Source of the DNA: a virus
Reading direction: 5' to 3' (one strand)
DNA length: 64,000 nt
IMG/VR virus record: IMGVR_UViG_3300048577_000559
Shown: one piece after another, positions 7,150-55,351 of the stretch
Layout of the letters: each line of letters opens with the position of its first letter
How positions within the stretch are numbered: the first letter of the stretch is position 1
Position numbers and translations under genes: made by a program
Notes under the pieces: generated by a model
What the model saw: only the letters and a program-made list of their open reading frames with translations
What the model was told of the DNA's origin: nothing
The model's database searches: none

Positions 7150-7671
7150 ATGGCAATCGACGCCACCTTCTACGGCACGCTGGACGAGGCCGACGCATAC
7201 TTCGCCAACCGGCTCCACGAAACGGCGTGGACCAACGCCTCGGCGAATGACCGGCGGAAGGCGCTCGTGGCGGCGCGGGGCATCATCGACTCCTTGAGCT
7301 ACAAGGGCAACAAGGCGAGCGTTTATACGCTCTTGCTGGCGAACCCATCCGCTACGCAAGAGCAGATTAGGGCAGCAGTGGCGACCCAGGCGTTGGAGTT
7401 TCCGCGCGGGGCCGACACGAACGTGCCCGAGGCGATCCGCGTGGCTTCCTACGAGATCGCTTATGCCCTGTTGGATGGCAAAGACCCTGAGTTGGAATTG
7501 GAGAACCTGGCCGTCAACTCGATGGGGTACGGGGCGGTGAAGACCAGCTATGAGCGGTCGCAACTGCCCATCGAGCACATCATCAACCTGGTGCCGAGTT
7601 CCGTCGCCTGGCGATTGTTGAAGCCTTTTCTGCGCGACTCGGATACCTTGAAGTTATTGCGACTGAGCTAG
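7150..7671 (+). CDS. Head-tail connector (gp6-like) family protein.
   Basis: N-terminal region ATFYGTLDEADAYFANRLHETAWTNASANDRRKALVAA resembles Phage_connect_1 proteins. Confidence 0.4.
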   Translation: MAIDATFYGTLDEADAYFANRLHETAWTNASANDRRKALVAARGIIDSLSYKGNKASVYTLLLANPSATQEQIRAAVATQALEFPRGADTNVPEAIRVASYEIAYALLDGKDPELELENLAVNSMGYGAVKTSYERSQLPIEHIINLVPSSVAWRLLKPFLRDSDTLKLLRLS

Positions 7672-11523: not shown

Positions 11524-12270
11524 ATGGCACGCATCGAATTGCGAGACTGCGATGTCATTTTGCAGGACGGCCTCGCGGGCACGGCGGCGGTCAACGAATC
11601 CGTCACCCCGCCCGAAGCGACCGACACCGACTTTGACATCGACACGATTGTCCTGAACACGGCCGACACCGATAAGGTGCCCGTGGGGGCGCGTTTCAAG
11701 ATTGTGGGCGAGACGACCCCCGTGTACCACACCGTCACGGCCCGCACCCCGGCCGACGCCGGCCCGACGACCAACATCGAGTTCGCGCCGGCCCTCGGCG
11801 CGGGCACGTATGCGGACGGCGCGGTGGTGACGTTCTATCCCCAGAATCTCGAAATCAAGATCGGGGAAGGAAACATCACCTACACCGAGCACAACGAGTA
11901 CGAGTACCTCAAGGACCGGGGCGACTTGGACACGGTGAAGGAAGGCGACGAAGTGCCGATGGACGTGAAGCTGGAGGCCGTCTTCGAGCACATCACCCAG
12001 GGCACGAGCGAGCCGGTCAGCCCGATGGACGCCCTGAAGGGCATCGGCGGGGCGGACGAGTGGGTGAGCGCGTCGAGCGACCTGTGCGAGCCGTACTGCG
12101 TGGACGTGGTGGTTCTGCACACGCCGCCCTGTGGCACGGCCCAGCTTGAGCGCGTGACCTTCCCCGACTTCCGCTCGGAGCAACGGGAGATCAACTACAA
12201 GGAGTCCACGATCTCGATTACGGGCAAGTGCAAGGCCACGGAACCCATCGTCGCGCGTGAGACGGCGTAG
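11524..12270 (+). CDS. Putative major tail (tube) protein.
   Basis: 248-aa ORF followed by a rho-independent terminator, directly upstream of the chaperone/tape-measure genes. Confidence 0.4.
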   Translation: MARIELRDCDVILQDGLAGTAAVNESVTPPEATDTDFDIDTIVLNTADTDKVPVGARFKIVGETTPVYHTVTARTPADAGPTTNIEFAPALGAGTYADGAVVTFYPQNLEIKIGEGNITYTEHNEYEYLKDRGDLDTVKEGDEVPMDVKLEAVFEHITQGTSEPVSPMDALKGIGGADEWVSASSDLCEPYCVDVVVLHTPPCGTAQLERVTFPDFRSEQREINYKESTISITGKCKATEPIVARETA

Positions 12271-12308: not shown

Positions 12309-12335
12309 GGCCTCTTTCTCAAGAAGACCAGATAT

Positions 12336-12363
12336 GCGGTGCCGGCAGCGGTGCCGGCACCGC
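12336..12363. promoter_or_regulatory. Direct repeat plus a 16-bp perfect palindrome GCGGTGCCGGCACCGC upstream of the chaperone gene.
   Basis: gcggtgccggca repeated twice. The second copy forms the perfect palindrome 12348-12363. Confidence 0.3.
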
Positions 12364-12395
12364 AACTCTCTCATTCCTTTTAGCGAGGGAACAAC

Positions 12396-12923
12396 ATGAA
12401 GATTGCCGGTATCGACCCCAAATCGCTTTCCAACGAGGTGCTCCTCGTGCTGCCGCGCGGCGAGAGCGAGATTATCTTCCGCGCCAAGGGCTTGCCCGAC
12501 ATGGCGGAGTTCGAGGCCGTGTGCCCGAACCCCAAGCCGCCGGGCAAGTTCACCAAGGACGGATGGATTCCCAACCTCACCGATCCCACCTATCAGCAAG
12601 TGCTCAGTGAGTGGGCCAAGAAGCGGCTGGGCTACATGGTCGTCAAGTCGTTGGCCCCGTCCGAAATCGAGTGGGATACCGTCAAGGAGAGCGATCCCCG
12701 CACCTGGGCCAAGTGGGAAGAAGACTTGAAGAGCGCCGGCCTGACCCAGGTGGAGTGCAATCGCGTGCTGGCCCTGGTCCTGGAGGCGAACGCCCTGGAC
12801 GACGCCAAGCTGCAACGGGCGCGCGAGGTTTTTCTGCGTGGTCAGGGACCGATGCCCGAAGAGTTCTCTTCGCCCCTTATCGCACCGCCGAGTTCGCCGT
12901 CTGGCGAGCCTGCGAACGGCTAG
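12396..12923 (+). CDS. Tail assembly chaperone (gpG-like).
   Basis: 175-aa ORF between the major tail and tape measure genes. RBS GAGGGA. Confidence 0.45.
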   Translation: MKIAGIDPKSLSNEVLLVLPRGESEIIFRAKGLPDMAEFEAVCPNPKPPGKFTKDGWIPNLTDPTYQQVLSEWAKKRLGYMVVKSLAPSEIEWDTVKESDPRTWAKWEEDLKSAGLTQVECNRVLALVLEANALDDAKLQRAREVFLRGQGPMPEEFSSPLIAPPSSPSGEPANG

Positions 12924-26949: not shown

Positions 26950-27768
26950 ATGGCCGCACTGTATCCCCTGACGCTCGACGCCTGGAACAGTCTGCTCGGG
27001 CGGATCAACAACCTAGCCTCGTGGCCTCCCGAAGGCTGCGATCCCATCGCTCAACTACCGCTTGTCACTGCGCCGCACAAGTGGACGGTCCAGGACATCG
27101 CGGCGGCGCAGGACAAGCTCCGGGAGATTTGTTCCGACAACACCTTCACCAGCCCTTCGCCTTCGGACAAATGGCGGAAGCTCTACATCGACGAGCTTGA
27201 CGAGGCCATCGACAACGGCTGGTGCAACTGCGAACCGCCGATACCGTGCTGCATACCTTATGGAGAGGGGACGGTCTGGATCGAAGGCCCCGGCGGCGGC
27301 TACTGGGTGACGATACCCTACTGGCAAGTGATCGAGCAGTACCTTTACGGAAACATCAGCTATGGGGCGGCTGAAGCGGCTCTTCCCGAAGGGGTCATGG
27401 CGCATCTGGTGCAGTGCTACGCTAGCGGCCAGGGCTACATTGCGCACAGCTTCCATCACGGGCATTGGGTGAACTGCGTCTACCAAGACTACTGGGTGGA
27501 GGGTGGTAAACGGGGTGAGGAGCATTGGAGTACGTGCCAGATCGACCCGGACGAGATTACTTACTTGGGACGGGTGCCCGCCCTCACTTCAAGCTACGAG
27601 AGCAGCACAATCGTTGGACCGACCAACTCTATTGATCCGTTCTGCGGGGCTTATCAGTACGACTATATCGAGCATCGGTGGTATCAGTCCTGCCAGATCG
27701 GGTACTTCGAGGTAAATGCGTATTGGTATTACTTCTCTTATTGGTCGCTGTTCCAGTGTCCAGCGTGA
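26950..27768 (+). CDS. Cys/Trp/Tyr-rich hypothetical protein.
   Basis: 272 aa with many C, W and Y (WCNCEPPIPCCIPYGEG, YWYYFSYWSLFQCPA). Last gene of the structural block. Confidence 0.4.
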   Translation: MAALYPLTLDAWNSLLGRINNLASWPPEGCDPIAQLPLVTAPHKWTVQDIAAAQDKLREICSDNTFTSPSPSDKWRKLYIDELDEAIDNGWCNCEPPIPCCIPYGEGTVWIEGPGGGYWVTIPYWQVIEQYLYGNISYGAAEAALPEGVMAHLVQCYASGQGYIAHSFHHGHWVNCVYQDYWVEGGKRGEEHWSTCQIDPDEITYLGRVPALTSSYESSTIVGPTNSIDPFCGAYQYDYIEHRWYQSCQIGYFEVNAYWYYFSYWSLFQCPA

Positions 27769-27807: not shown

Positions 27808-27845
27808 GACAAGTGCCCAGGTGGATAACCACCTGGGCACTTGTC
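27808..27845 (+). terminator. Perfect 17-bp stem-loop (GACAAGTGCCCAGGTGG-ataa-CCACCTGGGCACTTGTC), likely a terminator or regulatory hairpin.
   Basis: Exact inverted repeat read directly from the sequence, followed by TCATTTCTT. Confidence 0.5.
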
Positions 27846-27866: not shown

Positions 27867-28442
27867 ATGGAAAGCGCGTTTGCTTGGCTGAATCAGTTGT
27901 TCCAGGCCATCTATCAACTGTTCCCTCGCATCCTGATCGTGCGGGCCACGCACGGCGGCGTTGCTTGGGTACGGGGCAAGCACGTCAAGTTGCTCGTGCC
28001 GGGGCTGCATATCTACTGGCCCTTGACGACCGACGTGGAGGTCGTTGTGACCGCTCGGCAGACGCTCGCCATCCCGGACCAAGTGATGGCCACGAAGGAC
28101 GGCAAGAAGGTCGTGGTCAAGACCTTGGTGGTCTACAAGATTCCCGATCCCGTGCGGGCCATCGGCAAGCTCAATTGGGACGTGGACACCACGATCAACG
28201 ACCTGACGCAATCCGCCGTGGTCCGCGTTATTGCCACGCACACCTACGACGAGATCATGGCGGGGATCAGGGATGAGAGCCTGACGAAGACCTTGACCAC
28301 AGAGACCCGCCGCGAGTTGCGGCAGTTCGGCGTCCACGTCACGCGCTCGAAGCTGGTGGACTTCGCCGACTGCAAGGTCTTCAAGCTGCTCACGTCCCAG
28401 GCGGACAGGGCGGGGATGGCCACGCACCAGTTCTACCAGTAG
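27867..28442 (+). CDS. SPFH/band-7 (stomatin/prohibitin-like) domain protein.
   Basis: Match to the SPFH core: GGVAWVRGKHVKLLVPGLHIYWPL..DVEVVVTARQTLAIPDQVMATKDGKKVVVKTLVVYKIPDP. RBS GAGAGGAG. Confidence 0.6.
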   Translation: MESAFAWLNQLFQAIYQLFPRILIVRATHGGVAWVRGKHVKLLVPGLHIYWPLTTDVEVVVTARQTLAIPDQVMATKDGKKVVVKTLVVYKIPDPVRAIGKLNWDVDTTINDLTQSAVVRVIATHTYDEIMAGIRDESLTKTLTTETRRELRQFGVHVTRSKLVDFADCKVFKLLTSQADRAGMATHQFYQ

Positions 28443-29327: not shown

Positions 29328-29948
29328 TCAGAACATCCGCAGCATGGCGTGGTAGACTTCGGCCTCGGCAATGCAGTCGGCCAGGGCGTCATGCGGATTG
29401 GTATTCGTGATGCCCAGCTTCTTGCACATCGCCCCCAGGCCGACGAAGGGGAACGGGACCGGCTCGCCCGCAAAAGCGGCCTTGTCGTTGAGCGAGATTG
29501 CGTAGAGCATCCCGTCGCGGGCGTGGCTGTGAAACAAGAGGTCCATCTCCTCCACGCCCAGCCACGCCTTGAGGAATGACGACTCGAAGGCCCAGTTGTG
29601 GGCCAGCGGCACGAGGCACTTCTTGAAGGGCAGCTTCAAGTTCAAGAACCAGTCATGGAGCCAATCGGCCACCTGCTCGGCCTCGGGGGCGTGGAGCAAG
29701 AGTTCCGTCATGGGAATCTTGTGCTTGTGCTTCGCGCCGAGCGACTCCCGCTCCGGGTGTTTTGGCTTGACGCGGGTGTAGAACGGCCGCACGCTGGCAA
29801 GGGGCCTGAAGTCCGAGTCCAGCGGCACCACGGCGATCTGGATGATTTCGTGATAGCCGGGCCGCGTGCCGGTGGTCTCCAGGTCTACAGCCGCCATGAG
29901 ACAGCCGTTGAGGTGGACCAGGCCGGGATAGACGATGGAATCAGCCAC
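29328..29948 (-). CDS. DnaQ-like 3'-5' exonuclease (DEDDh).
   Basis: Motifs VDLETTG (Exo I), HNWAFE (Exo II) and HDALADC (Exo III). GTG start preceded by GGGGAGGAAG. Confidence 0.7.
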   Translation of the reverse strand: MADSIVYPGLVHLNGCLMAAVDLETTGTRPGYHEIIQIAVVPLDSDFRPLASVRPFYTRVKPKHPERESLGAKHKHKIPMTELLLHAPEAEQVADWLHDWFLNLKLPFKKCLVPLAHNWAFESSFLKAWLGVEEMDLLFHSHARDGMLYAISLNDKAAFAGEPVPFPFVGLGAMCKKLGITNTNPHDALADCIAEAEVYHAMLRMF

Positions 29949-30378
29949 GGCGGGTCTTCCTCCCCTTCTTGGCAGGCTTGCGGGGTGACTGGCGGGGCGA
30001 CTTGCGGACGACGGGCTGGTAGCACGGCATGTCGTTCAATTCCGCCGGGAGCAGCCCGCGCTCGATCATCTCCTCGTAATGGATCAAGGCCATCGAGTTG
30101 AACATGATCGCGGCAAGATGATCCTCGTCTCGCTTGCCCTGCTGGTACTTCATTACGTGCCGCTTGAGCGAGGCCACGCAACGCGAGAACGGCATCCCCT
30201 TTTCCCAGTTCCGCTCGGCGTACTTGGCCGCGCCCATGCGGAGCCAGTGGCCCTGCCGCTCTTCGGCGAACGGGGAGATCAGGTCGGGCCGGGGCTTGTC
30301 GTCCGCCGTGTCGCGGATCGCCATACCTTTGCCGAAGGATTGCCGTTTGCCGCTGTCGGTCATGCCGTACTTGCTCAT
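29941..30378 (-). CDS. Phage protein with a putative dATP/dGTP-diphosphohydrolase-like domain.
   Basis: RMGAAKYAERNWEKG..SLKRHVMKY..EDHLAAIMFNSMALIHYEE. Recalled as a phage nucleotide-pyrophosphohydrolase-associated domain, with low certainty. RBS GGAGAAG. Confidence 0.35.
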   Translation of the reverse strand: MSKYGMTDSGKRQSFGKGMAIRDTADDKPRPDLISPFAEERQGHWLRMGAAKYAERNWEKGMPFSRCVASLKRHVMKYQQGKRDEDHLAAIMFNSMALIHYEEMIERGLLPAELNDMPCYQPVVRKSPRQSPRKPAKKGRKTRRG

Positions 30379-30557
30379 TGATCTTCTCCGGGGTTCTCTG
30401 AATCAGTGGGTGCAACTTCAATGATGTCGCCGCCGTGCTCGTCGGCGAAGGCCGCTTCGTCTTCCGGCCGCTGGTCTACTTCAACTTCGGCGACCAACTC
30501 AGCCCGTAGCACGGAGCGAGAGAGGAAACCGGCGGAACGGTAGATGCGAAAGGTCAT
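30375..30557 (-). CDS. Small acidic hypothetical protein.
   Basis: 60 aa with RBS AAGGAAGGGG. Its stop overlaps the upstream gene's stop and start (ATGA). Confidence 0.35.
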   Translation of the reverse strand: MTFRIYRSAGFLSRSVLRAELVAEVEVDQRPEDEAAFADEHGGDIIEVAPTDSENPGEDQ

Positions 30558-33220
30558 TTGCGGTCCCCTTCCTTGGCTGGCTTCAGAGTCAGATGGGAAA
30601 CGTATTTCTGGTTGGCGTATCCGACCGTCGTTGAGTGGCGGACGGGCAGTTCCTTGCTGACTCGCTTCTTGGACCAGGCGTGTTTTTCGTTGGGCGGGAG
30701 CCATTGCTGGAAGCGGTCGTAGAATTCCGCAAACGGCGTATGCGCGTCGGGCATCTTTTCGCAACACTCGGCAATGAACTGTTCCAATTCCGTTTGATTG
30801 GCTTCTTCGGCGGACAGTTTGCTGGCGGTCGTGACCACCGGCAGTCGGAGCCGGTCAATCATGGGCGGCAATTCCAGGTGCATCAGCGTGTGAAGGAAAT
30901 GCGGGGCCTCTTGTTCAAGGAACGCCTCCATCTTCGGCTTGGCGATGCGTTGCTCGTCCAACAGATCGGCGACGTAGATGGCCGTGATGCGGGTGTCGCC
31001 GGGGAAGATCGGACAATTCTCTTGGCTGTTGGCCGTATGCACCCAATGGGTTGCATTGGGCTGCTCGAAACTGTCCTGGCGCAGCTTGCGGATGGAGATG
31101 GTCCGGCCCGTCACCCATGCCTTGAGTCGTTCACGGGCACCAGGGCACTTCGAGATGTCCACTTCTTCCACAGCACAGATGATTGCCCCGGAGAGTTCGC
31201 CATTGAAGCCATCGCGTCCCTCAAGCGGCCGTTTGGCCTGGACCACGCCCTTGGTCACTAAGAGTTGCAGCGATTCGTGGAAGATGCTCTTGCCGCTGTT
31301 CTCGGGGCCGAAGAAGAAAAGGTATGGTGTGGGTTGAAACGGATCGCGGAAGGCACACGCCACCCAGGCACGGAGATAGTCGGCCCCGGTCCTAATTCCG
31401 GCGTCAATGGCCCAGGGCAATTCCCGCAGCCTGGGCGTTAGCTCGTGGCCGATGTGGTCGAAGATCAAGTCCCAATGCGGATGGCAGGGAATCTCGTCGT
31501 CGGCCAACTCGGCGGGCTTGTACTTGAACTGGGCGGCGTCCATGTTCCATTGCCGGCCGCCGGGGTACTCTTCGCGGAAGGGGAGGTTGACCAAGCGCCA
31601 GCCACGGGCAACGGCCCCGCCCATGATGGCCTCGGCGTCGGCCTTGGCCTGCCCCAGGTTTTGCAGGATCATTTTCACGTTGGCGGCCGGCTGCCGGACC
31701 CATTCCTTGTTCTTCTTCACGACCCAGCCGGCGTGCTCGACGGCGGCGGTCTCCAACGCGCGGATGATTCCGTCAAATTCATTGAAATCCAGGTCGTTCT
31801 CTTCCTTGGGGTCCGTCTTGATCTGGAAAATCTTGACGTACTTCCCCTTCTTCTCTTCCCAGCCTTTCAACGGCTCTTCGTCTTTCCTCTTCCGCTCGAT
31901 CTCCACTACCAATCGGCCGTCCTTGTGGGCCTTGAGCGTCACCTTGCGGTCCATGACGCTCGGGTCCAGCTTGAGGTCTTCGCCCAGGCTTTTCGCGGCC
32001 TGGATGGCGGCGTCTGCCGACGCAAAGACATAGCCGCCTTGCTCACGCTCCACGCCGCCAAGTAGCGTGCAAGCAATCTTCAGGTCCGGGTAGCGGTTGA
32101 AGTAGCAGGTGGTCCAGCCTTGACCGTCCTGAGTCCAGGTGTCGGCCTCGGCGATGCCGGGCGAGAAGCGATAGACCCGCCAAGCCCCGTTGGGCAGCGG
32201 AAAGAGGAAACAGTTGGGCGTGCCAGGGTCGCGGCCCTCCGAGATCGTCTTGAAGATGCCCACTAGCTTCAGGGCTTTTCCTTCGGGGCCATTCAAGAGT
32301 TCGCGGAGCGCTGTGGTGTGACTTTGCAGGAGATGGTGGTCAGCCACCCAGAGCGTGGTGGCCCCGGAGCGCATCAGGGCCTCGATCTGCGCCTTGTGGC
32401 TGTCGTCCAGGGGAATGATCTTCCGGCTGGAGGCGAGGGCCTCGAAAGGGTCCGTATCGTCTTCGGCTACCTCGTTGATGCGGACCTTCGTGCGGCGACC
32501 CCTGACCACTTCGATATGGTCCCGCCAGTTGGCCGGCAGATCGGCGAGTGAGAGGCGCTTCTCAGCGGGCTTGATGATCTCCAGCCCGTGGTTCTCGACC
32601 GACATCTTGCGGTGCCAAATCCACATGACGTGGCCGCAAGCGTCGATCGCGCTGGCGAAGTCGAAGCCCACCTCGGCCGACATCATCCCCAGGATGCAGC
32701 GGGCCAGGGCAGCGTGCTCGGTGTGGTTGGCGGTCGGCACGCCAGCATCGTCGAGATAGACATAGAGGTGGATGCCGCCGCCGCCCGTGCTGCGGCGAAC
32801 TTCGACGTAAGGCAGGGCGCAAGCCGCCTGTTTGACTTTCTCTAATTGGGCCTCGTCGATGCCAATGCCTTGGGCGTGTCCGGTCAGGGCATCGAAATCA
32901 TAGCCGAAGTGACGGGATAAGCGGGCCTGCCAATCCCAGCCTGTCATGCCGATCCCTTCGGCGTACAGGTCGAAGGGATAGCCGATCTTGTAATCTTCCC
33001 ACGTCGGGTCCGTGGCCGCGTTCTTCGGGATGCGGATGGAGTGCCAAGTGTCGCTGCCGTTCGTCCAAGTGGACTTCTTCCCGGCCACCGGCTCGCCGTC
33101 GCCGGCCATTACGTTGACCTGCGTTTCCATTGCTGCGGACCAGCGATCCACCAGGTCGGCGTTGGCCGGCGTCTTCCGGGCATGAAGGAAGTCGTAGAGC
33201 GATTCGCTGACTAAGGGCAT
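30554..33220 (-). CDS. DNA primase / SF3 helicase (P4/D5-like primase-helicase).
   Basis: 888 aa. N-terminal primase-like region with STGGGGIHLYVYLD, and a C-terminal Walker A FFFGPENSGKS as in D5/P4 SF3 NTPases. Start MPLVSESL at 33220. The longer ORF to 33562 is rejected. Confidence 0.65.
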   Translation of the reverse strand: MPLVSESLYDFLHARKTPANADLVDRWSAAMETQVNVMAGDGEPVAGKKSTWTNGSDTWHSIRIPKNAATDPTWEDYKIGYPFDLYAEGIGMTGWDWQARLSRHFGYDFDALTGHAQGIGIDEAQLEKVKQAACALPYVEVRRSTGGGGIHLYVYLDDAGVPTANHTEHAALARCILGMMSAEVGFDFASAIDACGHVMWIWHRKMSVENHGLEIIKPAEKRLSLADLPANWRDHIEVVRGRRTKVRINEVAEDDTDPFEALASSRKIIPLDDSHKAQIEALMRSGATTLWVADHHLLQSHTTALRELLNGPEGKALKLVGIFKTISEGRDPGTPNCFLFPLPNGAWRVYRFSPGIAEADTWTQDGQGWTTCYFNRYPDLKIACTLLGGVEREQGGYVFASADAAIQAAKSLGEDLKLDPSVMDRKVTLKAHKDGRLVVEIERKRKDEEPLKGWEEKKGKYVKIFQIKTDPKEENDLDFNEFDGIIRALETAAVEHAGWVVKKNKEWVRQPAANVKMILQNLGQAKADAEAIMGGAVARGWRLVNLPFREEYPGGRQWNMDAAQFKYKPAELADDEIPCHPHWDLIFDHIGHELTPRLRELPWAIDAGIRTGADYLRAWVACAFRDPFQPTPYLFFFGPENSGKSIFHESLQLLVTKGVVQAKRPLEGRDGFNGELSGAIICAVEEVDISKCPGARERLKAWVTGRTISIRKLRQDSFEQPNATHWVHTANSQENCPIFPGDTRITAIYVADLLDEQRIAKPKMEAFLEQEAPHFLHTLMHLELPPMIDRLRLPVVTTASKLSAEEANQTELEQFIAECCEKMPDAHTPFAEFYDRFQQWLPPNEKHAWSKKRVSKELPVRHSTTVGYANQKYVSHLTLKPAKEGDRK

Positions 33221-33304
33221 GACATCTCTCTGAAAGGCCGCGTCGGTCGATCCGTAGTGAGCGTATAAACGCGCATGGCATCGGGCCTCGAATAGCGGGC
33301 CGCG

Positions 33305-33393
33305 TAGACACCTATACAAGACTGCCAAAAGCTCGCAGTTTCCCAGAAATGTTGGGAAAAAACGGGACTTTGGCAGTCTTGTATAGGTGTCTA
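33305..33393. promoter_or_regulatory. 25-bp perfect inverted repeat (TAGACACCTATACAAGACTGCCAAA ... TTTGGCAGTCTTGTATAGGTGTCTA) in a divergent intergenic region.
   Basis: Arms at 33305-33329 and 33369-33393 separated by about 39 bp, between the divergent primase-helicase and ParB-like genes. Confidence 0.55.
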
Positions 33394-33413
33394 CGTATGA
33401 CGCGGATGCACCG

Positions 33414-34343
33414 ATGCCTGAGCAACTGCCCGACGAGTTCCGACTAATTTCCCTGGACCAGATTATCGAGCCGTGGGTCGTCCTGCGGGTCGTGAACCGG
33501 GAGTCCATTGAGTACCTGGAACTGCGTGATTCGTTGGCGGCAGTCGGCCCGCTGAATTCCATCTGTGTGCGACCGTCCGAGCGGCGGCCCGGCTGTTACG
33601 AAGTCGTGGACGGCCTCTATCGGTACACGGCTGCCGTGGAATTACGGCTGCCAGCGCTGCCCTGCATCGTGAAGCACAACCTCACCGACGACGACGTACT
33701 GGCGCTTCAGATTCAGGCCAATGCCTTGCGGCCCGAAACGACGGCCGTGGAGTACGCGCGGCAGATCAAGCGGATCATGGACGCTCTCACGACTCGGCAG
33801 GGCATGGACGCAACGCTGGCTGACGTGAGCAATCTGATCCACAAAGGGACGGCCTGGATCGGCGATCAACTGAGGCTGCTGAGTCTGCGGCCGGACATCC
33901 AAAAGGCCGTGGAGCGTGGCGAGATACCGCTGAAGTCGGCCTACATGCTCGCCAAGCTGCCGCGCATCCATCAGGCGCAGTTAGTGGAACTGGCGAAGAC
34001 GGTCCCGGCACGGGAGTTCGTTCCCGTGGCGGCTCGTCTGGTCAAGCAGATTCAAGAGGCCGCCCGTCAAGGGAAGCTGCATGATCTCTGCAAGGACTTC
34101 GAGCCGGTGCCTCACTTGCGGCCCTTGAAGGACCTATTGGCCGAGTACCGCGAGCATCAGCTTGGCGGTTTGGCACTCACGATGGCTGACTGCAAGACGC
34201 CGGTGGATGGCTGGTATCTGGCCCTAGAGTGGGCGCTGAACCTGGATCAGGAGAGCATCCGCGAACAACGAGAGAGAGTCCTGGCGCGGAGCCGCGCGAA
34301 TCTCTTGGAACGGAGGGTAGAGCCATGTGACGACAACGAGTGA
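33414..34343 (+). CDS. ParB/Srx-like N-terminal domain protein.
   Basis: ParB-N-like segments LELRDSLAAVGPLNSICVRP..YEVVDGLYRYTAA. Start at ATG 33414, or GTG 33387. Confidence 0.5.
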   Translation: MPEQLPDEFRLISLDQIIEPWVVLRVVNRESIEYLELRDSLAAVGPLNSICVRPSERRPGCYEVVDGLYRYTAAVELRLPALPCIVKHNLTDDDVLALQIQANALRPETTAVEYARQIKRIMDALTTRQGMDATLADVSNLIHKGTAWIGDQLRLLSLRPDIQKAVERGEIPLKSAYMLAKLPRIHQAQLVELAKTVPAREFVPVAARLVKQIQEAARQGKLHDLCKDFEPVPHLRPLKDLLAEYREHQLGGLALTMADCKTPVDGWYLALEWALNLDQESIREQRERVLARSRANLLERRVEPCDDNE

Positions 34344-35922: not shown

Positions 35923-37617
35923 ATGCAGCCCTTCTTCGAGCAGAACAACCTGAGCCTGTATTGCGGCAACTGCCTCGACGTGCTCGCCACGCTCCCCGAG
36001 GCGTCCGTGGATTACGTCGTGACAGACCCACCCTACCTTCTCAACTTTATGGAGAAGGATTGGGACGCTGCTGGCGGCGACATCCCAACAAGCGAGTTGG
36101 TATTTCGGTCCTGGTTCGCCGGTTTGGTTGCCGGGGAGGCGTGCTTCCGAATCCACCGTGAAAAGGACGGAACCTACTACGCTTGTGAGTTCAACATCAA
36201 GATGCGTGCCGATGAAGGCCCGCTGCTGCGGGCGTTAGCTCGGCGCATCGAAGCAGGGAATGTGCAGGACATTCCGGCTGAGTCGCGCGCTGTGAATAGT
36301 GGACCAGCCGTGAAGTGGGTTGTCCACTCCCGCGAGGATTGCTGGAAGATCGCCCGCTTGTTGGACGGCACGCCACTCTATGCGAAGAAGCAACGTGAAT
36401 ACGATCTGTGGCGCAGAGCCCTGAACGTCTGGACGACAACGCCGCGTGGCAACCGTTGGTGTGGTCCGCGCGACAATTCGGCAATGGAATCCTTGTGGGA
36501 GGAGATGAAGACGCTGCGGCCGTTCGATCAGGACTTGGCTGATGGCGACTTCGATCCGCTGCGGCAACCGGATTACCTCTTCCACAATCGTTGGGCGAAA
36601 GCCTGCCTGCGCGTTGTGAAACCCGGCGGCCTCCTGCTGGCGTTTGGCGGTACACGCACCTATCACCGGCTGACTTGCGCAATCGAGGACGCCGGGTGGG
36701 AGATTCGGGACGCGCTGATGTGGCTCTATGGGCAGGGGATGCCCAAGTGCGGCGACATCGGCAAACTGATCGACAAGTCGAAAGGCGCGAAGCGCGAAAT
36801 CATCGGCGACAAGTTGGATCGTCCCGGCTACCACTTGCACGAAGGCAAGGGAAACGGGTGCTACGGCGGCGGCAACGGACTTCATGCCCCTGGCACGGAT
36901 GCTCGGCTTCGCGCCGCGCAGATAACGGCACCGGCGACTCCCGAGGGCGCGAAGTGGACCGGCTGGGCGATGGCGTTGAAGCCGGCCTGGGAGCCAATCG
37001 TCCTGGCGATGAAGCCGCTGGACGGCACGATTGCCCACAACGCCCTGACCTGGGGCGTGGCCGGCATGAACATTCAGGCTTCCCGCATCGGCAACGAGAG
37101 CACGATACGCACTCGCGGGGACAGCTTGACGGACGCCGGCTGGGCCAGCACGAACCGCTCGCCTCTGGGCGGGTCGGAATGCGGGCGATGGCCGGCGAAC
37201 TTACTGCTGGACGAGGAAGCGGCTGTTCAACTGGACACTCAAGCGGGCACGCTTACGAGCGGCACCAACTGCGTCCGCACGAAATCCGGCGACGGCTACC
37301 ACGGCCGTCTCGGTAAGGCGGGCGATGTGCAGATCAGCTACGGCGACTCCGGCGGAGCGAGCCGGTTTTTCTACTGTGCTAAAGCGACACGCACGGAGCG
37401 CGGGCCGGGCAACGACCATCCGACCGTTAAGCCCCTGGCCCTCATGGAGTACCTGTTGACGCTGCTCTCGACCCCGGATGGCGGCGTGATTCTGGACCCC
37501 TTCGCCGGCAGCGGCACCACGCTCTTGGCCGCCAAAAGCCTTGGCCGCCGTTGCATCGGCGTCGAGTTGACCGCACACAACTGCGAGATCGCCCGAGGGA
37601 GATTGCATGTCGCTTGA
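35923..37617 (+). CDS. DNA methyltransferase (N6A/N4C, beta class) with an embedded LAGLIDADG-like domain.
   Basis: Motif IV DPPY near the N-terminus, RVVKPGG downstream, and motif I DPFAGSGTT at the C-terminus. An insertion of about 180 aa contains WFAGLVAGEACF...GPLLRALARRIEAGNV...WKIARLLDGTPLYAKKQREYDLWRRAL, matching the LAGLIDADG homing-endonuclease pattern. Confidence 0.65.
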   Translation: MQPFFEQNNLSLYCGNCLDVLATLPEASVDYVVTDPPYLLNFMEKDWDAAGGDIPTSELVFRSWFAGLVAGEACFRIHREKDGTYYACEFNIKMRADEGPLLRALARRIEAGNVQDIPAESRAVNSGPAVKWVVHSREDCWKIARLLDGTPLYAKKQREYDLWRRALNVWTTTPRGNRWCGPRDNSAMESLWEEMKTLRPFDQDLADGDFDPLRQPDYLFHNRWAKACLRVVKPGGLLLAFGGTRTYHRLTCAIEDAGWEIRDALMWLYGQGMPKCGDIGKLIDKSKGAKREIIGDKLDRPGYHLHEGKGNGCYGGGNGLHAPGTDARLRAAQITAPATPEGAKWTGWAMALKPAWEPIVLAMKPLDGTIAHNALTWGVAGMNIQASRIGNESTIRTRGDSLTDAGWASTNRSPLGGSECGRWPANLLLDEEAAVQLDTQAGTLTSGTNCVRTKSGDGYHGRLGKAGDVQISYGDSGGASRFFYCAKATRTERGPGNDHPTVKPLALMEYLLTLLSTPDGGVILDPFAGSGTTLLAAKSLGRRCIGVELTAHNCEIARGRLHVA

Positions 37618-43950: not shown

Positions 43951-44023
43951 TGTGGCGTAGTTCAGTTGGCAGAGCGGGTGCCTGTTGAGCACCGGGTCGC
44001 TGGTTCGAGTCCAGCCGCTACAG
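43951..44023 (+). tRNA. tRNA-Asn (anticodon GTT).
   Basis: Manual cloverleaf: acceptor TGTGGCG/CGCTACA, D-stem GTTC/GAGC, anticodon stem GGTGC/GCACC with loop CTGTTGA, T-arm GCTGG-TTCGAGT-CCAGC, discriminator G. Confidence 0.75.
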
Positions 44024-44044
44024 CCTCAATCTTGGAGACAGCCA

Positions 44045-44845
44045 ATGCCTATCTTCTGTGTGAGTGACCTGCATCTGTGCGACCGAGGCTACCGCGACAA
44101 CTTCGCCGTGGAAGGCCGCGAGGCCCGCTTCCACAGGTTCCTGGACTACGTGGAGGCCGAAGGCGGCCTACTGTATGTCCTGGGCGACCTGTTCGATTGG
44201 TGGCAAGTGAACCTGAGTCGGTCGATTCGTGCCTATCAAGACCTGCTGGCACGCTTGGCTCACCTCGGATCGCTGGGGGCCTTGTGGGTGGTCGGCAACC
44301 ACGATAACGCTTTGACCGATTTCGTCGGCAGCAACATCAAATTGCAGGGCCTCACTTTGCCCGCAATGTCCAGGGCCTTCGAGGCGACCATCGGCGGCCG
44401 GCAGTTCGCCTTTCTCCACGGCCACGAGTCCGACCCGTATTGCCGCGACGCCAACCCTGGCACCGGCGAGATTACGGCAATCATTTCCGGGCTGCTGGAA
44501 GACCGCAACCGTGGGCCGTTTTCGACGAATCATCATGCCGTGGAAGACCAGTTCGTCGGCACGTTGGAAGGGGCCTTGATCCTCTGGCGGAAGTTGACCC
44601 TCCAGCACGGCCGCATGGATGAAATGCTCGACGGCGTGGAAGCGTATCGCAAGGAGGCCGGGGCCGACGTGGTGGTCTACGGTCACACGCACGAGCCGGG
44701 CTGCATCGGCGACTACCACTTCAACACCGGCACCTGGGCAAGGACGAACGATACCTTCGTGCGGATCAACGACGACGGCGATGCAGCCGTCTGGGAGTGG
44801 CGGCACGATAACCGGCCTGTGTTGTTCTCCCGTGTATTGCGATGA
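44045..44845 (+). CDS. Calcineurin-like metallophosphoesterase.
   Basis: Motifs VSDLHL, GDLFD, GNHD, GHTH. Confidence 0.7.
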   Translation: MPIFCVSDLHLCDRGYRDNFAVEGREARFHRFLDYVEAEGGLLYVLGDLFDWWQVNLSRSIRAYQDLLARLAHLGSLGALWVVGNHDNALTDFVGSNIKLQGLTLPAMSRAFEATIGGRQFAFLHGHESDPYCRDANPGTGEITAIISGLLEDRNRGPFSTNHHAVEDQFVGTLEGALILWRKLTLQHGRMDEMLDGVEAYRKEAGADVVVYGHTHEPGCIGDYHFNTGTWARTNDTFVRINDDGDAAVWEWRHDNRPVLFSRVLR

Positions 44846-45666
44846 AGCCGCTGGAACAGTACCAGGCGTATCCCGTCCCGGCGGCGACCATCTACTGTGA
44901 TGCCACCTTCAACTGTCGTGGCGAGTTCACGCTGCAATCCGTCAAAGAACTGGCTGAGAGCATCGCCCAGGCAGGGCGGCTGATCTGCCCGGTCGCCGTG
45001 CAACCCTGGGCGCAAGAATCTGGCTGCCAATACCGCCTGATCGTTGGGCACCGCCGCTTCCGGGCCGTGACCGAGTTCCTGCGATGGATGGAGATACCGG
45101 CCTACGTCTGCGAGGGTTTGAGCGACCATGAAGCCCGGATGCTGAACCTGGTCGAGAACCTGCACCGCAAGAGCCTGAACATCCTGGAAGAGGCCCGTGC
45201 GATTCAGAACCTTTATCCCAACGGTGCGAGCGTGCGGGAGGCGGCCCGCGAGCTAAAGCGGGACACGCGATGGGTCTGGGTCCGCGTGCGGCTGTTGCGG
45301 ATGCCCGAGGCCATTCAGCAGAAGGCCGCCGCTGGCCTGCTCTCGCAGTGGAACCTGGACACGCTGGCTGGCATCGAGTCACTCGACGAGCAGATCGCGG
45401 CTGCCGACAAGATCGCGGAAGCACGGCAGCGCGGCAAGGGAAAGTTCCTGCCGGGTCTTGCCAGGACGTATAAACGCCGCCGAAGTGTCCGTCCGCGCGA
45501 AGAGATCAACCGCATGATCGAACGGATGTTGGCCGTTGGTATCAACGGCTTGCCGCCCCGCGTGGCCGCGTGGTGCGCGGGTCAGGTCTCCGACGAGGTA
45601 TTGCTGAAAGAAATCGAGGCGGCGACTCCAGAAAGCACGACAAATCCCGATCTCCCAGCGGAGTGA
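44842..45666 (+). CDS. ParB-like nuclease domain protein.
   Basis: LIVGHRRFRA (ParB box II GxRR) and a helix-rich C-terminus. Confidence 0.6.
   Translation: MKPLEQYQAYPVPAATIYCDATFNCRGEFTLQSVKELAESIAQAGRLICPVAVQPWAQESGCQYRLIVGHRRFRAVTEFLRWMEIPAYVCEGLSDHEARMLNLVENLHRKSLNILEEARAIQNLYPNGASVREAARELKRDTRWVWVRVRLLRMPEAIQQKAAAGLLSQWNLDTLAGIESLDEQIAAADKIAEARQRGKGKFLPGLARTYKRRRSVRPREEINRMIERMLAVGINGLPPRVAAWCAGQVSDEVLLKEIEAATPESTTNPDLPAE
45626..45663 (+). promoter_or_regulatory. Bipartite motif copy B: CTCCAGA-N16-GATCTCCCAGCGGAG.
   Basis: Exact half-sites with a 16-nt spacer. Located within the 3' end of the ParB-like gene, 9 nt before the 45673 ATG. Confidence 0.45.
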
Positions 45667-46032: not shown

Positions 46033-48528
46033 ATGAGCAAGCATCCGCCGAAACTCTACCTCGATACGGAGACATGCGGGCTGCACAGCATGATGGTGCT
46101 GTTGCAGTACGCCGTGGAAGACGGCCTCATTGTCCTGTACGAGGTTTGGCGGCGGCCCGTCCGCGAGACGCTGGCGCTGATCGAGTGGATATGCCAGCAT
46201 ACGGTTGTGGGCTTCAATCTGTCCTTCGACTGGTTCCACGTCTGCAAAATCTACACCGTCTTCCGCCTATGCGACCCGGACTGGATACCCGAAGAGCACA
46301 TCCACGAGATCGCCATGTTGGAGCCGCAGGGGCAGGACGGCCCGTGCATCAAGCCGGCGGCGGTCCTGGACCTGATGCTCCACAGCCGCAAAGGCCCTTA
46401 CCAGTCGCTAATGGCCCGCGAGGATGTCAGGATCAAGCGGGTTCCCACGGCCCTCGCCTACGCCCTGGCCCGCGAGCTAGAGGCCCGTGTCCAGTTCGAC
46501 AACATCTACTTCGCCAAGTCGGCCGACCCGGAAGCGCCCAAGTGGCAGGTCTTCGACCGGCACGATTCTTTCGGCGATCTGGATACCGAGTTCAAGGATG
46601 TCGTCTTGAAGTTCAACCCGGCTGGCGGCCTCAAGTTCCTCGCCGAGCACGCCCTGAAGCTCAAGCCCAAGTATCACTACAAGGACGTGGAGCCGCCCCC
46701 GGCGTGGCGGCCTTACGAGTTGGGCTATGCGCCCACGGCCCTGGCCGTGTCGAGTCCCGAAAAGGACTGGGCAATCGAGGCTGACGAAGACGGCGGCAAG
46801 AAAGTCACGAAGTACGCTTGGCCAGCCGTGATTCGCCAATTCATCCACCACTGGGCCACCCGTGAAGATGCCCGCGACTATGCCAACGACGACATCGTTT
46901 ATACGCGCGAGTTGGACAAACACTTCGGCTGCCCGGAGCCGGGTGACAACGACTCCACCTTGACCTGCATGGTGGCGGCCGTCCGCTGGCACGGTTTTAC
47001 AATCAACCGCGAAGGGATCGAAGCCCTGAAGGCGAAGGCCGAGGCGGCAGTGGCGGCCAGCCCGGTGAACATTAACAAGCCGAGCGAGGTCCGCGCCTAC
47101 GTCATGGCCGCGATGGACGGCACCGAGCACCTGATTCTCGACACCTCCACGAAGAAGGCCAACCTCGAAGCGATCAGCAGGTGGGGCATCGGCCAAATGT
47201 GCCCGGCGTGCAAGGGCAAGGGCCACCTGGACAAGGAAACGGACATTTGCCCGCAGTGTAACGGTGTCTGCTACGTCGGCGAGCCGGAGCCGTGCGGCAA
47301 GTGCCAGGGCGACGACCCGCACTGCGCACGCTGCGGCGGTACGGGCTTCCTGAAGGTCGGCCGGCACCCGGCCGGTGCCCGTGCCAAGGAGATCCTCGGC
47401 GTCAAGTTCGCCGCCAAGGAAATCGAGCTATACGACAAGTTGCTCTTGGCCGGCAAGTTCCATGCCTCGTTTGTCGTGATTGGTGCCCTCTCGTCCCGCA
47501 TGGCCGGGGCGGATGGCCTCAATGCCCAGGGGATCAAGCACACCAAGGAAGTCCGGCAGACGTTCCCCTTGGCCTGGAATGGGTATCTGCTCTGCGGCGG
47601 CGACTTCAGTTCCTTCGAGGTGACAATCGCTGACGCTGTGTGCGACGACGAGGCGCTGCGCGCCGAGTTGATTGCTGGCCGGAAGATTCACGCCCTGTTC
47701 GGCATGGCGATCTTCCCCGGCACGACCTACGAAGAGGTCAAGTCGAGCGACGGCAGCACGACCAACGATATGTACACGAAGGGCAAGCAAGGCTTCTTCG
47801 GTACGATGCTTTATGGCGGCGACCATAGCACGCTGGTCAACCGTCTGGGCATCAGCGAAGAAGTCGCCAAGCACGCCATCGAGAGCTTCGGCAGCCGCTT
47901 CGTGGGCGTCAAGAAGTGGCGGAAGCGGGTCGCCGATTCGTTCTGCTCCATGACCCAGCCGGGCGGCATCGGCACCAAGGTCGTTTGGAAAGACCCGGCC
48001 GATTACGCCGAGACGATGCTGGGGTTCCGTCGCTACTTCACGCTCGAAAACCGCATTTCACGCGCGATCTTCGATCTGGCCCGCAACACGCCCAAGCACT
48101 GGAAGGACTGCAAGGTCAAGGTGGTCCGCCGTGACCGCGTGCAGACTGCCGGCGGCGCGGTCTCGTCGGCCCTCTACGGGGCGGCGTTCTCGATGCAGGC
48201 GGCCAACATGCGGGCGGCGGCGAACCATGAAATCCAGTCGCCTGGTGCCGAAATCACCAAGCACGTCCAGCGGCAGATTTGGGACTTGCAGCCGGTCGGT
48301 GTGAACGATTGGCACGTCGCCCCCATGAACATTCACGACGAGATCATGTGCGTCACCCGCCCGGACATGGTTCCAAGCGTCACCGAGGTTGTCCGCGAGT
48401 CCGTCGAGCACTTCCGTCCCTACGTGCCGTTGATCGGTATGGATTGGTGCGAGGGCATGAACAACTGGGCGGAAAAGAAATCGGGAGCCACGCAGGTCAA
48501 GATCAGAGCGCCGGAGATGATGAAGTAG
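46033..48528 (+). CDS. Family A DNA polymerase with 3'-5' exonuclease domain and a DnaJ-type zinc-finger insertion.
   Basis: Exo I YLDTETCGL. Pol motif A GGDFSSFE, motif B K..GFFGTMLYGG, motif C NIHDEIM. Inserted (CxxCxGxG)x4 module CPACKGKG, CPQCNGVC, CGKCQGDD, CARCGGTG at 47199-47345. Confidence 0.8.
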   Translation: MSKHPPKLYLDTETCGLHSMMVLLQYAVEDGLIVLYEVWRRPVRETLALIEWICQHTVVGFNLSFDWFHVCKIYTVFRLCDPDWIPEEHIHEIAMLEPQGQDGPCIKPAAVLDLMLHSRKGPYQSLMAREDVRIKRVPTALAYALARELEARVQFDNIYFAKSADPEAPKWQVFDRHDSFGDLDTEFKDVVLKFNPAGGLKFLAEHALKLKPKYHYKDVEPPPAWRPYELGYAPTALAVSSPEKDWAIEADEDGGKKVTKYAWPAVIRQFIHHWATREDARDYANDDIVYTRELDKHFGCPEPGDNDSTLTCMVAAVRWHGFTINREGIEALKAKAEAAVAASPVNINKPSEVRAYVMAAMDGTEHLILDTSTKKANLEAISRWGIGQMCPACKGKGHLDKETDICPQCNGVCYVGEPEPCGKCQGDDPHCARCGGTGFLKVGRHPAGARAKEILGVKFAAKEIELYDKLLLAGKFHASFVVIGALSSRMAGADGLNAQGIKHTKEVRQTFPLAWNGYLLCGGDFSSFEVTIADAVCDDEALRAELIAGRKIHALFGMAIFPGTTYEEVKSSDGSTTNDMYTKGKQGFFGTMLYGGDHSTLVNRLGISEEVAKHAIESFGSRFVGVKKWRKRVADSFCSMTQPGGIGTKVVWKDPADYAETMLGFRRYFTLENRISRAIFDLARNTPKHWKDCKVKVVRRDRVQTAGGAVSSALYGAAFSMQAANMRAAANHEIQSPGAEITKHVQRQIWDLQPVGVNDWHVAPMNIHDEIMCVTRPDMVPSVTEVVRESVEHFRPYVPLIGMDWCEGMNNWAEKKSGATQVKIRAPEMMK

Positions 48529-49477: not shown

Positions 49478-50153
49478 CCAGTACAACGAGAAGCTAGTTG
49501 CCGGTCTGCACCATGCGACCAACGACGAGACATGGACTGCTGAGAAGAACGCCGACTTGCATCCGCTCGTTGCGGCGGGCGACAAGGAAGCTCGTGAGAC
49601 CATGATTAACGGCAACATGCCGTTAGTGCTCTCGAAGGTGGAAGCCTTCATCCGTTCGTTCCCAAGTATCGCACATCTCCGCGATGATTTGGTCAGTGCT
49701 GGATGCGTCGGCCTGGTCAAAGCTGTCAACAAAATGGCTCGCGGCGAGGGGCCGCGCAACACCGATCCCGTTGCGCCAACTGATTTCATTGGCATGTGGA
49801 TCAATCGTGAACTTGGGGAATTGGTTGAGGCAGAACATACCATTCGATTGCCTCCTCGTTCCAAGTATCGCGCCCGTGCGAATGGACAAGAGCTAGAAGC
49901 GCCCGAGGTCTGCAACGTCATTCCCGAACGGTTCGCGGTTCCCTCCTGCGAAGAGGAACTGGAAATCCGCGATCTGATCGACTCGTGTTGCGTCTGTGAA
50001 GACGAGCGGACGTTTGTTGCCATGCGGGAAGCGGGCTACACCCTCGTCGAGATTGGGGCCGCCATTGGCAAATCGCGCATGGCCACACAACGCATGGCCA
50101 AGCAGATTGACGCCCGCGTGCAGCGCAAACTGGAGGCCCTGCGCAACGCATGA
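49470..50153 (+). CDS. Sigma-70-family sigma factor (phage-encoded, ECF-like size).
   Basis: A region-2-like segment, and a region-4 HTH YTLVEIGAAIGKSRMATQRMAKQI near the C-terminus. GTG start, 227 aa. Confidence 0.5.
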   Translation: MSNQYNEKLVAGLHHATNDETWTAEKNADLHPLVAAGDKEARETMINGNMPLVLSKVEAFIRSFPSIAHLRDDLVSAGCVGLVKAVNKMARGEGPRNTDPVAPTDFIGMWINRELGELVEAEHTIRLPPRSKYRARANGQELEAPEVCNVIPERFAVPSCEEELEIRDLIDSCCVCEDERTFVAMREAGYTLVEIGAAIGKSRMATQRMAKQIDARVQRKLEALRNA

Positions 50154-50758
50154 TCCGACGCATCTTCTTAGACCTGGACGACGTGTGCAATACGCTGGCA
50201 CCTTTCGTGCTGCACTCGGTCGGTTGCGGCATCGGTCCAAGCGACTACGCTCGCTACCCGCGTGAACACGGCTTCAACATCTCGGCCGCCGCCAACGCCA
50301 TGTTGGGTGAGCCGCGCTACACCCCGGCCACGCTCTGGGCGTCAATCCCGCGTTCCCTGTGGGTCAAGGTGCCCGAATCGGACTTCTTCGCTTGGCTGTT
50401 GGACACCTGCGCTCAAGCCGTTGGCCGCGAGAACGTGTGCATCGCCACCTCGCCCACGAAAGACCCCGATTGCCTGGCGGGAAAGCTGGAGTGGATTCAC
50501 GACCACTTTCCCGAGTGGATGCACCGGCAGTACGCCATCACGCCCCGGAAGCATCTTCTCGCTCGTCCTGACTCCCTGCTGATCGACGACTACAGCGAAA
50601 ACATCGAGCGGTTCGAGGCCCACGGCGGCTACGCCATCACCGTCCCAAGGCCCTGGAATGAACATTGGGCTTCAGACCCTCGCGGGTACTTGGAAGAAAA
50701 ACTCGCGGTGGCACTCCAGAAGTCACCCGGATTTACGATCTCCCAGCGGAGAGACTGA
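50150..50758 (+). CDS. 5'(3')-deoxyribonucleotidase-like HAD hydrolase (NT5C family).
   Basis: N-terminal DxD motif IFLDLDDV, as in NT5C and phage dNMP nucleotidases. Confidence 0.5.
   Translation: MIRRIFLDLDDVCNTLAPFVLHSVGCGIGPSDYARYPREHGFNISAAANAMLGEPRYTPATLWASIPRSLWVKVPESDFFAWLLDTCAQAVGRENVCIATSPTKDPDCLAGKLEWIHDHFPEWMHRQYAITPRKHLLARPDSLLIDDYSENIERFEAHGGYAITVPRPWNEHWASDPRGYLEEKLAVALQKSPGFTISQRRD
50714..50751 (+). promoter_or_regulatory. Bipartite motif copy C: CTCCAGA-N16-GATCTCCCAGCGGAG.
   Basis: Exact half-sites with a 16-nt spacer, within the 3' end of the NT5C-like gene and 31 nt before ATG 50783. Confidence 0.45.
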
Positions 50759-55340: not shown

Positions 55341-55351
55341 AGAAGTCCAAG

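Follow-up and report, generated by a model that had tools for sequence, protein, structure and literature searches.

The only divergent gene junction in the 64,000-nucleotide (nt) viral sequence IMGVR_UViG_3300048577_000559 (the whole stretch analysed, referred to here as the window) carries a 93-bp near-palindrome, which lies between a leftward primase-helicase gene and a rightward gene for a ParB-like protein. We tentatively read this palindrome as a plus-strand 5'-leader stem-loop that would gate translation of the ParB-like operon and act as an RNase III-type substrate, and give this reading somewhat less than an even chance. Three features, namely compensatory changes in the arms, a bias of G·T mismatches towards the plus strand and a basal helix that covers the Shine-Dalgarno (SD) region of the ParB-like gene, together favour a single-stranded hairpin, most simply of RNA, in the ParB leader.

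An earlier sequence-only reading of this DNA had described a 25-bp inverted repeat, TAGACACCTATACAAGACTGCCAAA at 33305-33329 with its exact reverse complement at 33369-33393 and a 39-bp spacer. This description is accurate, and the perfect repeat is actually longer, at 27 bp (Table 1). Beyond these 27 bp, an imperfect extension results in arms of 43 nt (86% complementary) around a 7-nt centre, which together make up the 93 bp. Chance is no explanation for the inverted repeat, since none of 100 shuffled sequences matched it, and it is the longest local inverted repeat of the window. A search for the half-site elsewhere, proposed in the sequence-only reading as a check, revealed no other copy in the 64 kb with up to three mismatches, and the palindrome is therefore unique. 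The plus strand is predicted to fold as RNA with -72 kcal/mol (z = -11.3 against shuffled controls) and the minus strand with -66 kcal/mol (z = -11.9), while folds with DNA parameters give a z of about -10 for both strands. Conserved features of the sequence are a pair of inverted boxes at the base of the stem, GACACCTA and TAGGTGTC, as well as a T-run and an A-run in the inner arms, on the 5' and the 3' side, respectively. The palindrome stays below the gathering score of every Rfam family, and tRNA-Asn alone passes the threshold in the window; at a relaxed threshold, the locus only yields generic look-alikes of miRNA precursors with 14-34 bits, compared to thresholds of 70-196. No intrinsic terminator is called at the locus on either strand, and neither arm is followed by a T-run. 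A protelomerase tel site was also considered and dropped because of the asymmetric, variable centre and because none of the ORFs (open reading frames) scanned resembles a protelomerase gene.

Relatives of the locus were found in IMG/VR and on metagenome contigs, and additionally on contigs of 0.19-1.07 Mb that belong to metagenome-assembled genomes (MAGs) of Planctomycetota. The latter place the host in this phylum. The MAG-contig relatives L081, L082, L084, L085 and L086, on contigs of 0.14-1.07 Mb, are assigned to Thermoguttaceae, Planctomycetaceae and Pirellulales, and the locus is located within ~40 kb of a contig end in all of them except L086. The phage is probably temperate, with its relatives residing as integrated prophages; no integrase turned up in the scanned ORFs of the window. 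A search for cultured or otherwise known relatives among 50,697 phage records gave no DNA match and no primase match, and the ParB-like protein finds no more than 34% identity there, over part of its length. In 57 distinct sequences, a hairpin of 70-145 nt is positioned 1-37 nt upstream of the ParB start, over a range of ParB identity from 95% to ~50%. Gene order is conserved among the relatives, and the layout of the junction is constant: the start of the minus-strand gene is followed by the 12-mer GCGTRTAAACGC, a spacer of 31-50 nt, the hairpin, the sequence (T)GACGCGGA(W)GCAcc and the ATG. In L054, L083 and L084, the arm sequence is unrelated, yet a long palindrome is still present, and the retained position of the hairpin in these lineages speaks for a leader element. 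In L062 and L064, the palindromes are composite and longer. The most distant relatives, L070 and L078 (ParB ~41-44% identical), present arrays of a 10-13-bp box, whose inverted pairs flank a TATAAT-like site, and identical 27-bp palindromes lie on both sides of this site. The suggestion that a cis element under selection occupies the only divergent junction of the window is borne out.

For an alignment of 42 sequences, RNAalifold predicts 24 base pairs, 19 of them with double-sided changes. The structure that was tested consists of the basal helix P0, the main stem P1 and the apical stem P3. In this structure, 91% of the cells are paired (79% in shuffled alignments), cells with changes on both sides number 177 (54 in shuffles) and the covariation score is 0.379 (0.168 in shuffles, none of 500 reaching the observed value, and 0.03-0.12 in slid controls); these statistics, like those on strand bias and SD pairing below, ignore kinship among the sequences, which has to be held against the leader reading. 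The variable stem cells comprise 613 Watson-Crick pairs (97%), 12 plus-strand wobbles, two minus-strand wobbles and three other combinations, and the apical stem co-varies with 97% of its positions paired. Covariation of the arms shows that pairing or symmetry is maintained, and does not settle which molecule pairs. Each pair state flips between 3 and 15 times on the ParB tree, and the arm sequences correlate weakly with the flanking phylogeny. Such a high degree of homoplasy would also fit a functionless palindrome that maintains itself, its symmetry being kept by template switching. Long palindromes are normally lost unless they are selected. Down to ~50% ParB identity, even versions unrelated in sequence keep the AT-rich apex and the outer boxes, along with the position, the length class and the distance to the start codon, and we give a functionless palindrome very little credence.

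The two strands of the palindrome are not equivalent. The more stable RNA fold is formed by the plus strand in 38 sequences and by the minus strand in 14, with five ties (Wilcoxon, 2e-5). Mismatches were counted in a strand-neutral manner, by aligning the left arm to the reverse complement of the right arm, and the transition mismatches appear as G·T on the plus strand in 86 cases and on the minus strand in 38 (binomial, 2e-5). This bias is expected from a hairpin of plus-strand RNA or single-stranded DNA (ssDNA), and not from a duplex-binding protein or a symmetric cruciform. One ssDNA function to be weighed is a promoter of the Frpo type, in which the folded plus strand would mimic a duplex promoter and drive leftward transcription or primer synthesis whenever this strand is unpaired with its complement. 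Precedent exists in the ParB-like herB/yfjB gene of the F plasmid, which is controlled by Frpo2, a hairpin promoter that stays silent in duplex DNA (PMC13370423). As in Frpo2, a long imperfect palindrome is found directly upstream of the ParB-like early gene of a mobile element (PMC13370423), and the primase block has the better-folding plus strand as its template. However, this strand is the wrong one for ParB, to which the element is tied and whose template strand folds less well. Unlike in Frpo, -35/-10-like hexamers at sigma-70 spacing are absent from the stem, both in a scan and upon inspection of 33352-33395, and a tailed double-stranded DNA phage has no obvious single-stranded entry stage. 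An Frpo-type promoter is consequently hardly plausible here.

The third feature concerns the ribosome-binding site of the ParB-like gene. A GGAG-type SD precedes 32 of 55 phage genes, and the SD-like sequence of the ParB-like gene has the form CGCGGA(T/A)G. The left flank of the palindrome can pair with CGCGGA across a 7-nt 3' bulge to form P0, and a fold of the window with DNA parameters contains the same basal helix across the 7-nt bulge. In the pair tables of minimum free energy (MFE) folds comprising flank, hairpin and leader, the region from -14 to -4 is predicted to pair to the left flank with a mean of 6.1 of its 11 nt, in comparison to 4.1 with a shuffled flank, and predicted pairing exceeds the shuffled value in 45 of the 57 sequences (Wilcoxon, 7e-7). 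Different lineages achieve this with different left flank and SD sequences: AUCCGCG pairs with CGCGGAU in the main clade, CUCC with GGAG in L053 and L054, CUUCU with AGGAG in L073, GCACUC with GAGUGC in L050, CUGCG with CGCGG in L056 and UUGCG with CGCGA in L058. What chiefly favours the RNA leader is that a function in DNA alone would not explain why the palindrome extends over the ribosome-binding site each time. A long-range interaction between GGCATCGG (33277-33284) and the ParB start was dismissed as chance, being present in the closest relatives of the window only. Likewise, an in-frame GTG at 33387 was rejected as the real ParB start, since 1-nt indels before the ATG break the frame in eight of 42 relatives. 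L060 alone seems to need an upstream start, as its conserved ATG reads ACG. On this 102-kb contig (2964-3010), the right arm ends with an in-frame ATG (ATGTCTGAC...) that could serve as the start, and translation would then begin at the hairpin base.

In the mechanism that we propose, the hairpin would be carried in the 5' leader RNA of the rightward operon, which comprises, in order, the ParB-like gene, two genes of unknown function, a DNA methyltransferase gene, a gene for an SNF2-type helicase and further genes onward. The left flank, (A/G)UCCGCG, would pair over the 7-nt bulge with CGCGGA(U/A) situated 7 nt before the ParB AUG, and above this basal helix would rise a near-perfect duplex of 25-30 bp, followed by internal loops and an AU-rich apical stem. 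By default, the first gene would not be translated, as this fold locks its ribosome-binding site in a helix of very high stability. The uninterrupted 27-bp duplex, which exceeds the at least 20 bp looked for in an RNase III leader, would be a natural substrate of the host RNase III. Cleavage would part the anti-SD from the SD, or alternatively lead to decay, and thereby set both the level and the timing of operon expression. The leader RNA itself and the action of RNase III or another factor on it are presumed, and the promoter would be located to the left of the hairpin, possibly at the TATAAA inside the 12-mer. RNase III-processed leader sites are also found in the phage lambda N leader and at T7 R0.3. 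Processing of leader hairpins by this enzyme is established for rnc and pnp (PMC3997798). What the palindrome would share with the Escherichia coli rnc and pnp leaders is a long duplex with hardly any interruption, placed in the 5' leader with which an early or autoregulated operon begins; in those leaders, the structure influences how accessible the ribosome-binding site is or how stable the mRNA is (PMC3997798). In contrast to these established leaders, transcription and RNase III cleavage of the hairpin described here are predicted. There is no sequence or Rfam kinship to rnc, pnp, lambda N or T7 R0.3, the stem is longer (27 bp perfect and ~40 bp in total), and nothing in those sites corresponds to the conserved outer box or to the conserved orientation of T-run and A-run.

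Several further points weigh against a leader RNA. Template switching or arm-to-arm conversion can keep the arms of a DNA palindrome identical, and covariation alone is thus no proof of RNA. The left arm is rich in C and A and the right arm in G and T, so the G·T bias equals a greater drift of the left arm, for which sequence constraint on the right arm could be an alternative source. Outside the hairpin, nothing backs a plus-strand RNA: the interval between the 12-mer and the hairpin shows neither significant structure (mean z = -0.6) nor strand bias, and a second small hairpin in this interval was dropped as RNA evidence on the same values. The SD region is unpaired in some lineages (L051, L059 and L061). 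A sigma-70-like scan called no promoter in the window region 32900-33800, where the sigma-70 consensus may not suit the inferred Planctomycetota hosts. Conservation of the outer box (ACACCTA/TAGGTGT) and of T-run and A-run orientation would be more usual for a site read by a protein, and the box arrays of L070 and L078 look like operators or iterons. Finally, the 12-mer is flipped in L084 and L085, which argues against a plain -10 element.

A function of the palindrome in DNA would most directly concern replication. The element is unique in 64 kb, is located between divergent replication genes directly beside the primase/helicase gene, and coincides with a trough in GC content (43-50%, compared to ~62% for the genome) that is centred on it. 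It might thus represent an origin hairpin, at which a phage initiator, plausibly the adjacent primase-helicase of the superfamily 3 (SF3) type, recognises GACACCTA / TAGGTGTC and the unwound strand folds into a loading or priming structure, as at OriS/OriS* of herpes simplex virus 1 (HSV-1); we consider this unlikely. HSV OriL sits between divergently transcribed replication genes. OriS combines a palindrome with inverted boxes and an AT-rich spacer with a one-strand hairpin as a functional intermediate (PMC12543377). The palindrome shares with OriS and OriL the inverted recognition boxes around an AT-rich spacer and would share the one-strand hairpin (PMC12543377), and an anatomy of the OriS type, with inverted boxes that flank a centre AT-rich relative to the genome, is present. 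Outer boxes that are kept inverted while the remaining stem only has to pair would agree with such an origin, as would a strand bias compatible with a one-strand hairpin such as OriS* and the iteron-like box arrays of the distant relatives. An origin leaves unexplained why the distance to the ParB start is constantly short and why the basal helix covers differing SD sequences, and OriS lacks such a tight coupling to a start codon and SD. Where an extra gene is inserted, it comes to lie between the primase gene and the element, and the latter keeps its place beside ParB. Each arm has a single box and the main clade lacks iterons, the HSV initiator UL9 belongs to superfamily 2 and not to SF3, and covariation with the arms is not seen for any segment of the primase (r of 0.44 at best, over 17 loci). 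A GC-skew inflection is absent from the site, skew being uninformative where nearly all genes share an orientation. A narrower proposal, in which a strand-specific DNA hairpin (a cruciform arm) acts as the initiation or loading structure for the SF3-type primase-helicase as a phage counterpart of OriS*, and ParB may read split TTTC(A/C) half-sites at its tip, is regarded as quite improbable.

The ParB-like protein itself offers another set of explanations, as it is a homologue of Spo0J, ParB, Noc and KorB over the N-terminal and helix-turn-helix (HTH) domains according to profile comparisons with structures. The sequence-only reading had suggested that the palindrome is an operator for both divergent promoters. 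In such an operator, the ParB-like HTH protein or a prophage repressor, as dimer or tetramer, would bind the symmetric boxes and/or the apical repeat and repress one or both operons. This would suit the sole divergent junction of a probably temperate phage and the conservation of the outer boxes, the right one more than the left, and the palindromes around the TATAAT-like site in L070 and L078 represent a classic operator layout. Additionally, KorB provides the precedent of a ParB-family repressor at palindromic operators (PMC11790492). The apical half-sites TTTC(A/C)N resemble ParB and Noc half-sites, which read TTTCAC in parS and TTTCCC in the Noc-binding site NBS (PMC7383237); among the relatives they occur as TTTCCCA, TTTTCAG and GTTTCAC plus complements. 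The residue aligned to R173, a specificity residue, is a proline in 16 of 21 TTTCA types and in six of 20 TTTCC types (Fisher, 0.005), an association that mostly follows clades. Comparisons of arms and recognition helices speak against an operator: the helices are identical and at least five arm positions differ between the window and L027 and between L046 and L081, whereas L006 and L031 have identical arms and different helices. Across the primase, ParB, g34415, g35257, helicase, exonuclease and MazZ, the correlation of 30-aa segments with arm similarity never exceeds a Spearman r of 0.49 and none stands out, as expected if only pairing matters at the variable arm positions. Promoter-like hexamers were not found at the locus, and the boxes lie ~75 bp apart with paired variable filler that an operator does not need. 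Moreover, plus-strand G·T bias and SD pairing are not predicted by duplex binding. With no sigma-70-like promoter called, no second copy and no co-varying neighbour protein, we consider an operator of the divergent promoters unlikely, although the conserved outer box may still act as one.

A parS-like centromere, which had been put forward as well, would have the adjacent ParB-like protein nucleate at the palindrome in partition or in condensation of the DNA. As at known sites, a cognate-type protein, here a true homologue of ParB, Spo0J and Noc, is encoded directly alongside, and the apical half-sites recall TTTCCC/TTTCAC of such sites (PMC7383237). The parS site is a 16-bp palindrome with abutting half-sites of the type TGTTNCAC/GTGNAACA (PMC7383237). 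Sites of the parS, NBS and KorB operator (OB) kind measure 13-16 bp, have abutting half-sites and usually occur in several copies; here, the half-sites are split within a single palindrome of 93 bp, by 7 nt in the window and by 5-10 nt in relatives. The arms vary fast among identical recognition helices and do not co-vary with them. In the ParB-like proteins, the canonical base-contacting residues S172, R173 and N178 are replaced and variable, and the GERRxR box is degenerate (DGLYRY). No ParA/CbiA-type match was obtained among 29 ORFs scanned with Pfam, which are part of the window ORFs. A parS function of the palindrome is therefore very improbable.

The dispersed 12-mer is a better candidate than the palindrome for the binding site of a ParB-type protein or another regulator. 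It is the most conserved intergenic element, and four copies with at most one mismatch are present in the window, compared to 0.29 expected. The copies at 45466 and 46895 occupy the same positions in 20 IMG/VR relatives, for which coding constraint could also account. The TATAAA inside the 12-mer lies 34 nt upstream of the hairpin, and the flipped orientation mentioned above is easier to reconcile with protein binding at a symmetric site than with a -10 box. For the leader reading, a hint of a promoter may come from L078, in which a plus-strand TGGACA-N18-TATAGT (2842-2871), sigma-70-like in 10 of 12 positions, lies upstream of the proximal hairpins; CCGTATAGT of L078 matches the core of the 12-mer, and the TATAAA core matches the L078 -10. 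Readings of the arms as sigma-54, extracytoplasmic function (ECF)-type, Bacteroidetes-type or extended -10 promoters were rejected on inspection for misfit in spacing, and a third GGTGT box near the primase start was classified as clade-specific ribosome-binding-site context and not as a conserved box.

Table 1. Coordinates of the palindrome, the 12-mer copies and the flanking genes in the window, and of box arrays in two distant relatives.
Feature	Position	Strand	Remarks
Primase/SF3-helicase-like gene	30554-33220	-	888 aa; DUF5906; PHROG 'DNA primase'; first gene of leftward block in window
12-mer GCGTATAAACGC	33261-33272	+	Most conserved intergenic element; 31-50 nt left of hairpin
Left flank (G)CCGCG	33299-33304	+	(A/G)TCCGCG in most relatives; putative anti-SD
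Left perfect arm (5' side of P1)	33303-33329	+	Outer box GACACCTAYACA sequence-conserved; inner AAGACTGCCAAA varies with compensation
Inner imperfect arms and apical stem-loop	33330-33368	+	
Apical stem-loop, TTTCCCA	33339-33345	+	
Apical stem-loop, loop GAAATGT	33346-33352	+	
Apical stem-loop, TGGGAAA	33353-33359	+	
Right perfect arm (3' side of P1)	33369-33395	+	Box TGTRTAGGTGTC more conserved than left partner
SD-like CGCGGAT	33401-33407	+	7 nt upstream of ParB ATG; 3' side of P0
ParB-like gene	33414-34343	+	Pfam ParB_N and HTH_ParB; first gene of rightward operon
12-mer copy 2 ACGTATAAACGC	45466-45477	+	Inside second ParB-like gene; position conserved in relatives
12-mer copy 3 GCGTATAAACGA	46895-46906	-	Inside PolA gene; conserved in relatives
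12-mer copy 4, exact	7319-7330	-	Structural region
Box arrays of relatives	L070 2699-2995; L078 2705-2990		~8 copies as nested palindromes; boxes GGTGACTTTT(CAC) or GGTGCCTTTTCAC

The family is also variable around the junction. In some relatives, an extra HNH-like gene is found between the primase gene and the 12-mer, and both the 12-mer and the hairpin remain with ParB. This small minus-strand gene encodes an N-terminus of the form MxKTKPIP... and a CWxWxG motif (L007, 5680-5850; L014, 3390-3900), the same insertion is located upstream in L029, L031, L037, L046, L064 and L066, and its product is probably a homing endonuclease. Two sequences break at the element: L012 (3825-4070) diverges from all relatives exactly at the ParB start and has no palindrome, and L016 (1-70) diverges at the outer edge of the left arm and has no 12-mer. 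These breaks may stem either from recombination there or from chimeric assembly across the inverted repeat. Independently of ParB, IMG/VR was scanned for the pattern CACCTAYA-N50-75-TRTAGGTGT; the matches listed were mostly due to chance, and L112 was the only one among them that belonged to the family.

The genes that flank the palindrome start as the sequence-only reading had stated, with the minus-strand primase-helicase at 33220 and the plus-strand ParB-like gene at 33414, and the rest of the genome is almost entirely plus-strand. Leftwards, the primase gene is followed by genes for a MazZ-like pyrophosphohydrolase and an exonuclease; farther to the right lie a second ParB-like gene, PolA and a ligase. 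The second ParB-like gene (44842-45666, ParB_N and HTH_ParB) is situated 11 kb downstream of the first and overlaps the end of a metallophosphatase gene. Inserted in frame within the methyltransferase gene (35923-37617) is a LAGLIDADG endonuclease (Pfam LAGLIDADG_1, aa 66-166). The corresponding residues, aa ~49-199/225, are absent from most relatives (L001, L002, L005, L006, L017 and others) and kept in L004 and L013, and the insert looks like a mobile intein or homing-endonuclease insertion. Genes of nucleotide metabolism are located at 29941-30378, 43985-44845, 50150-50758 and 55124-55951, and the set includes the N-domain of a MazZ-like dATP/dGTP diphosphohydrolase, a metallophosphatase, an NT5C 5'-nucleotidase and a weak match resembling nucleoside 2-deoxyribosyltransferase. 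This cluster may hint at modified DNA, and no PurZ-like match was found among the ORFs tested. A plus-strand tRNA-Asn (GTT) gene at 43951-44025 lies between the early and the replication genes; the ORF at 43985-44845 overlaps it, so the real start of this gene is probably farther downstream. Two short hairpins with 4-nt loops, one perfect over 17 bp (27808-27845, between the ORFs 26950-27768 and 27867-28442) and one of 18 bp with 89% complementarity (12330-12369, between the ORFs 11524-12270 and 12396-12923), are probably terminators or attenuators of the structural gene block.

Two elements that the sequence-only reading had merged can now be separated, a hairpin constrained in its structure and a dispersed 12-mer constrained in its sequence. 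The class of mechanism proposed for the hairpin is already known; what is new is a motif that has neither an Rfam family nor a described relative, and a hairpin origin would be the more novel of the two readings. If the element acts as RNA, it would constitute a new leader motif without an Rfam family, represented by ~55 sequences with strong covariation. If it acts as DNA, a tailed phage would have an origin hairpin that is linked with an SF3 helicase. As an element that is kept among the relatives at the single divergent junction of the replication and early region, it gives the readiest access to the question of how early genes are turned on, or replication is begun, in these phages.

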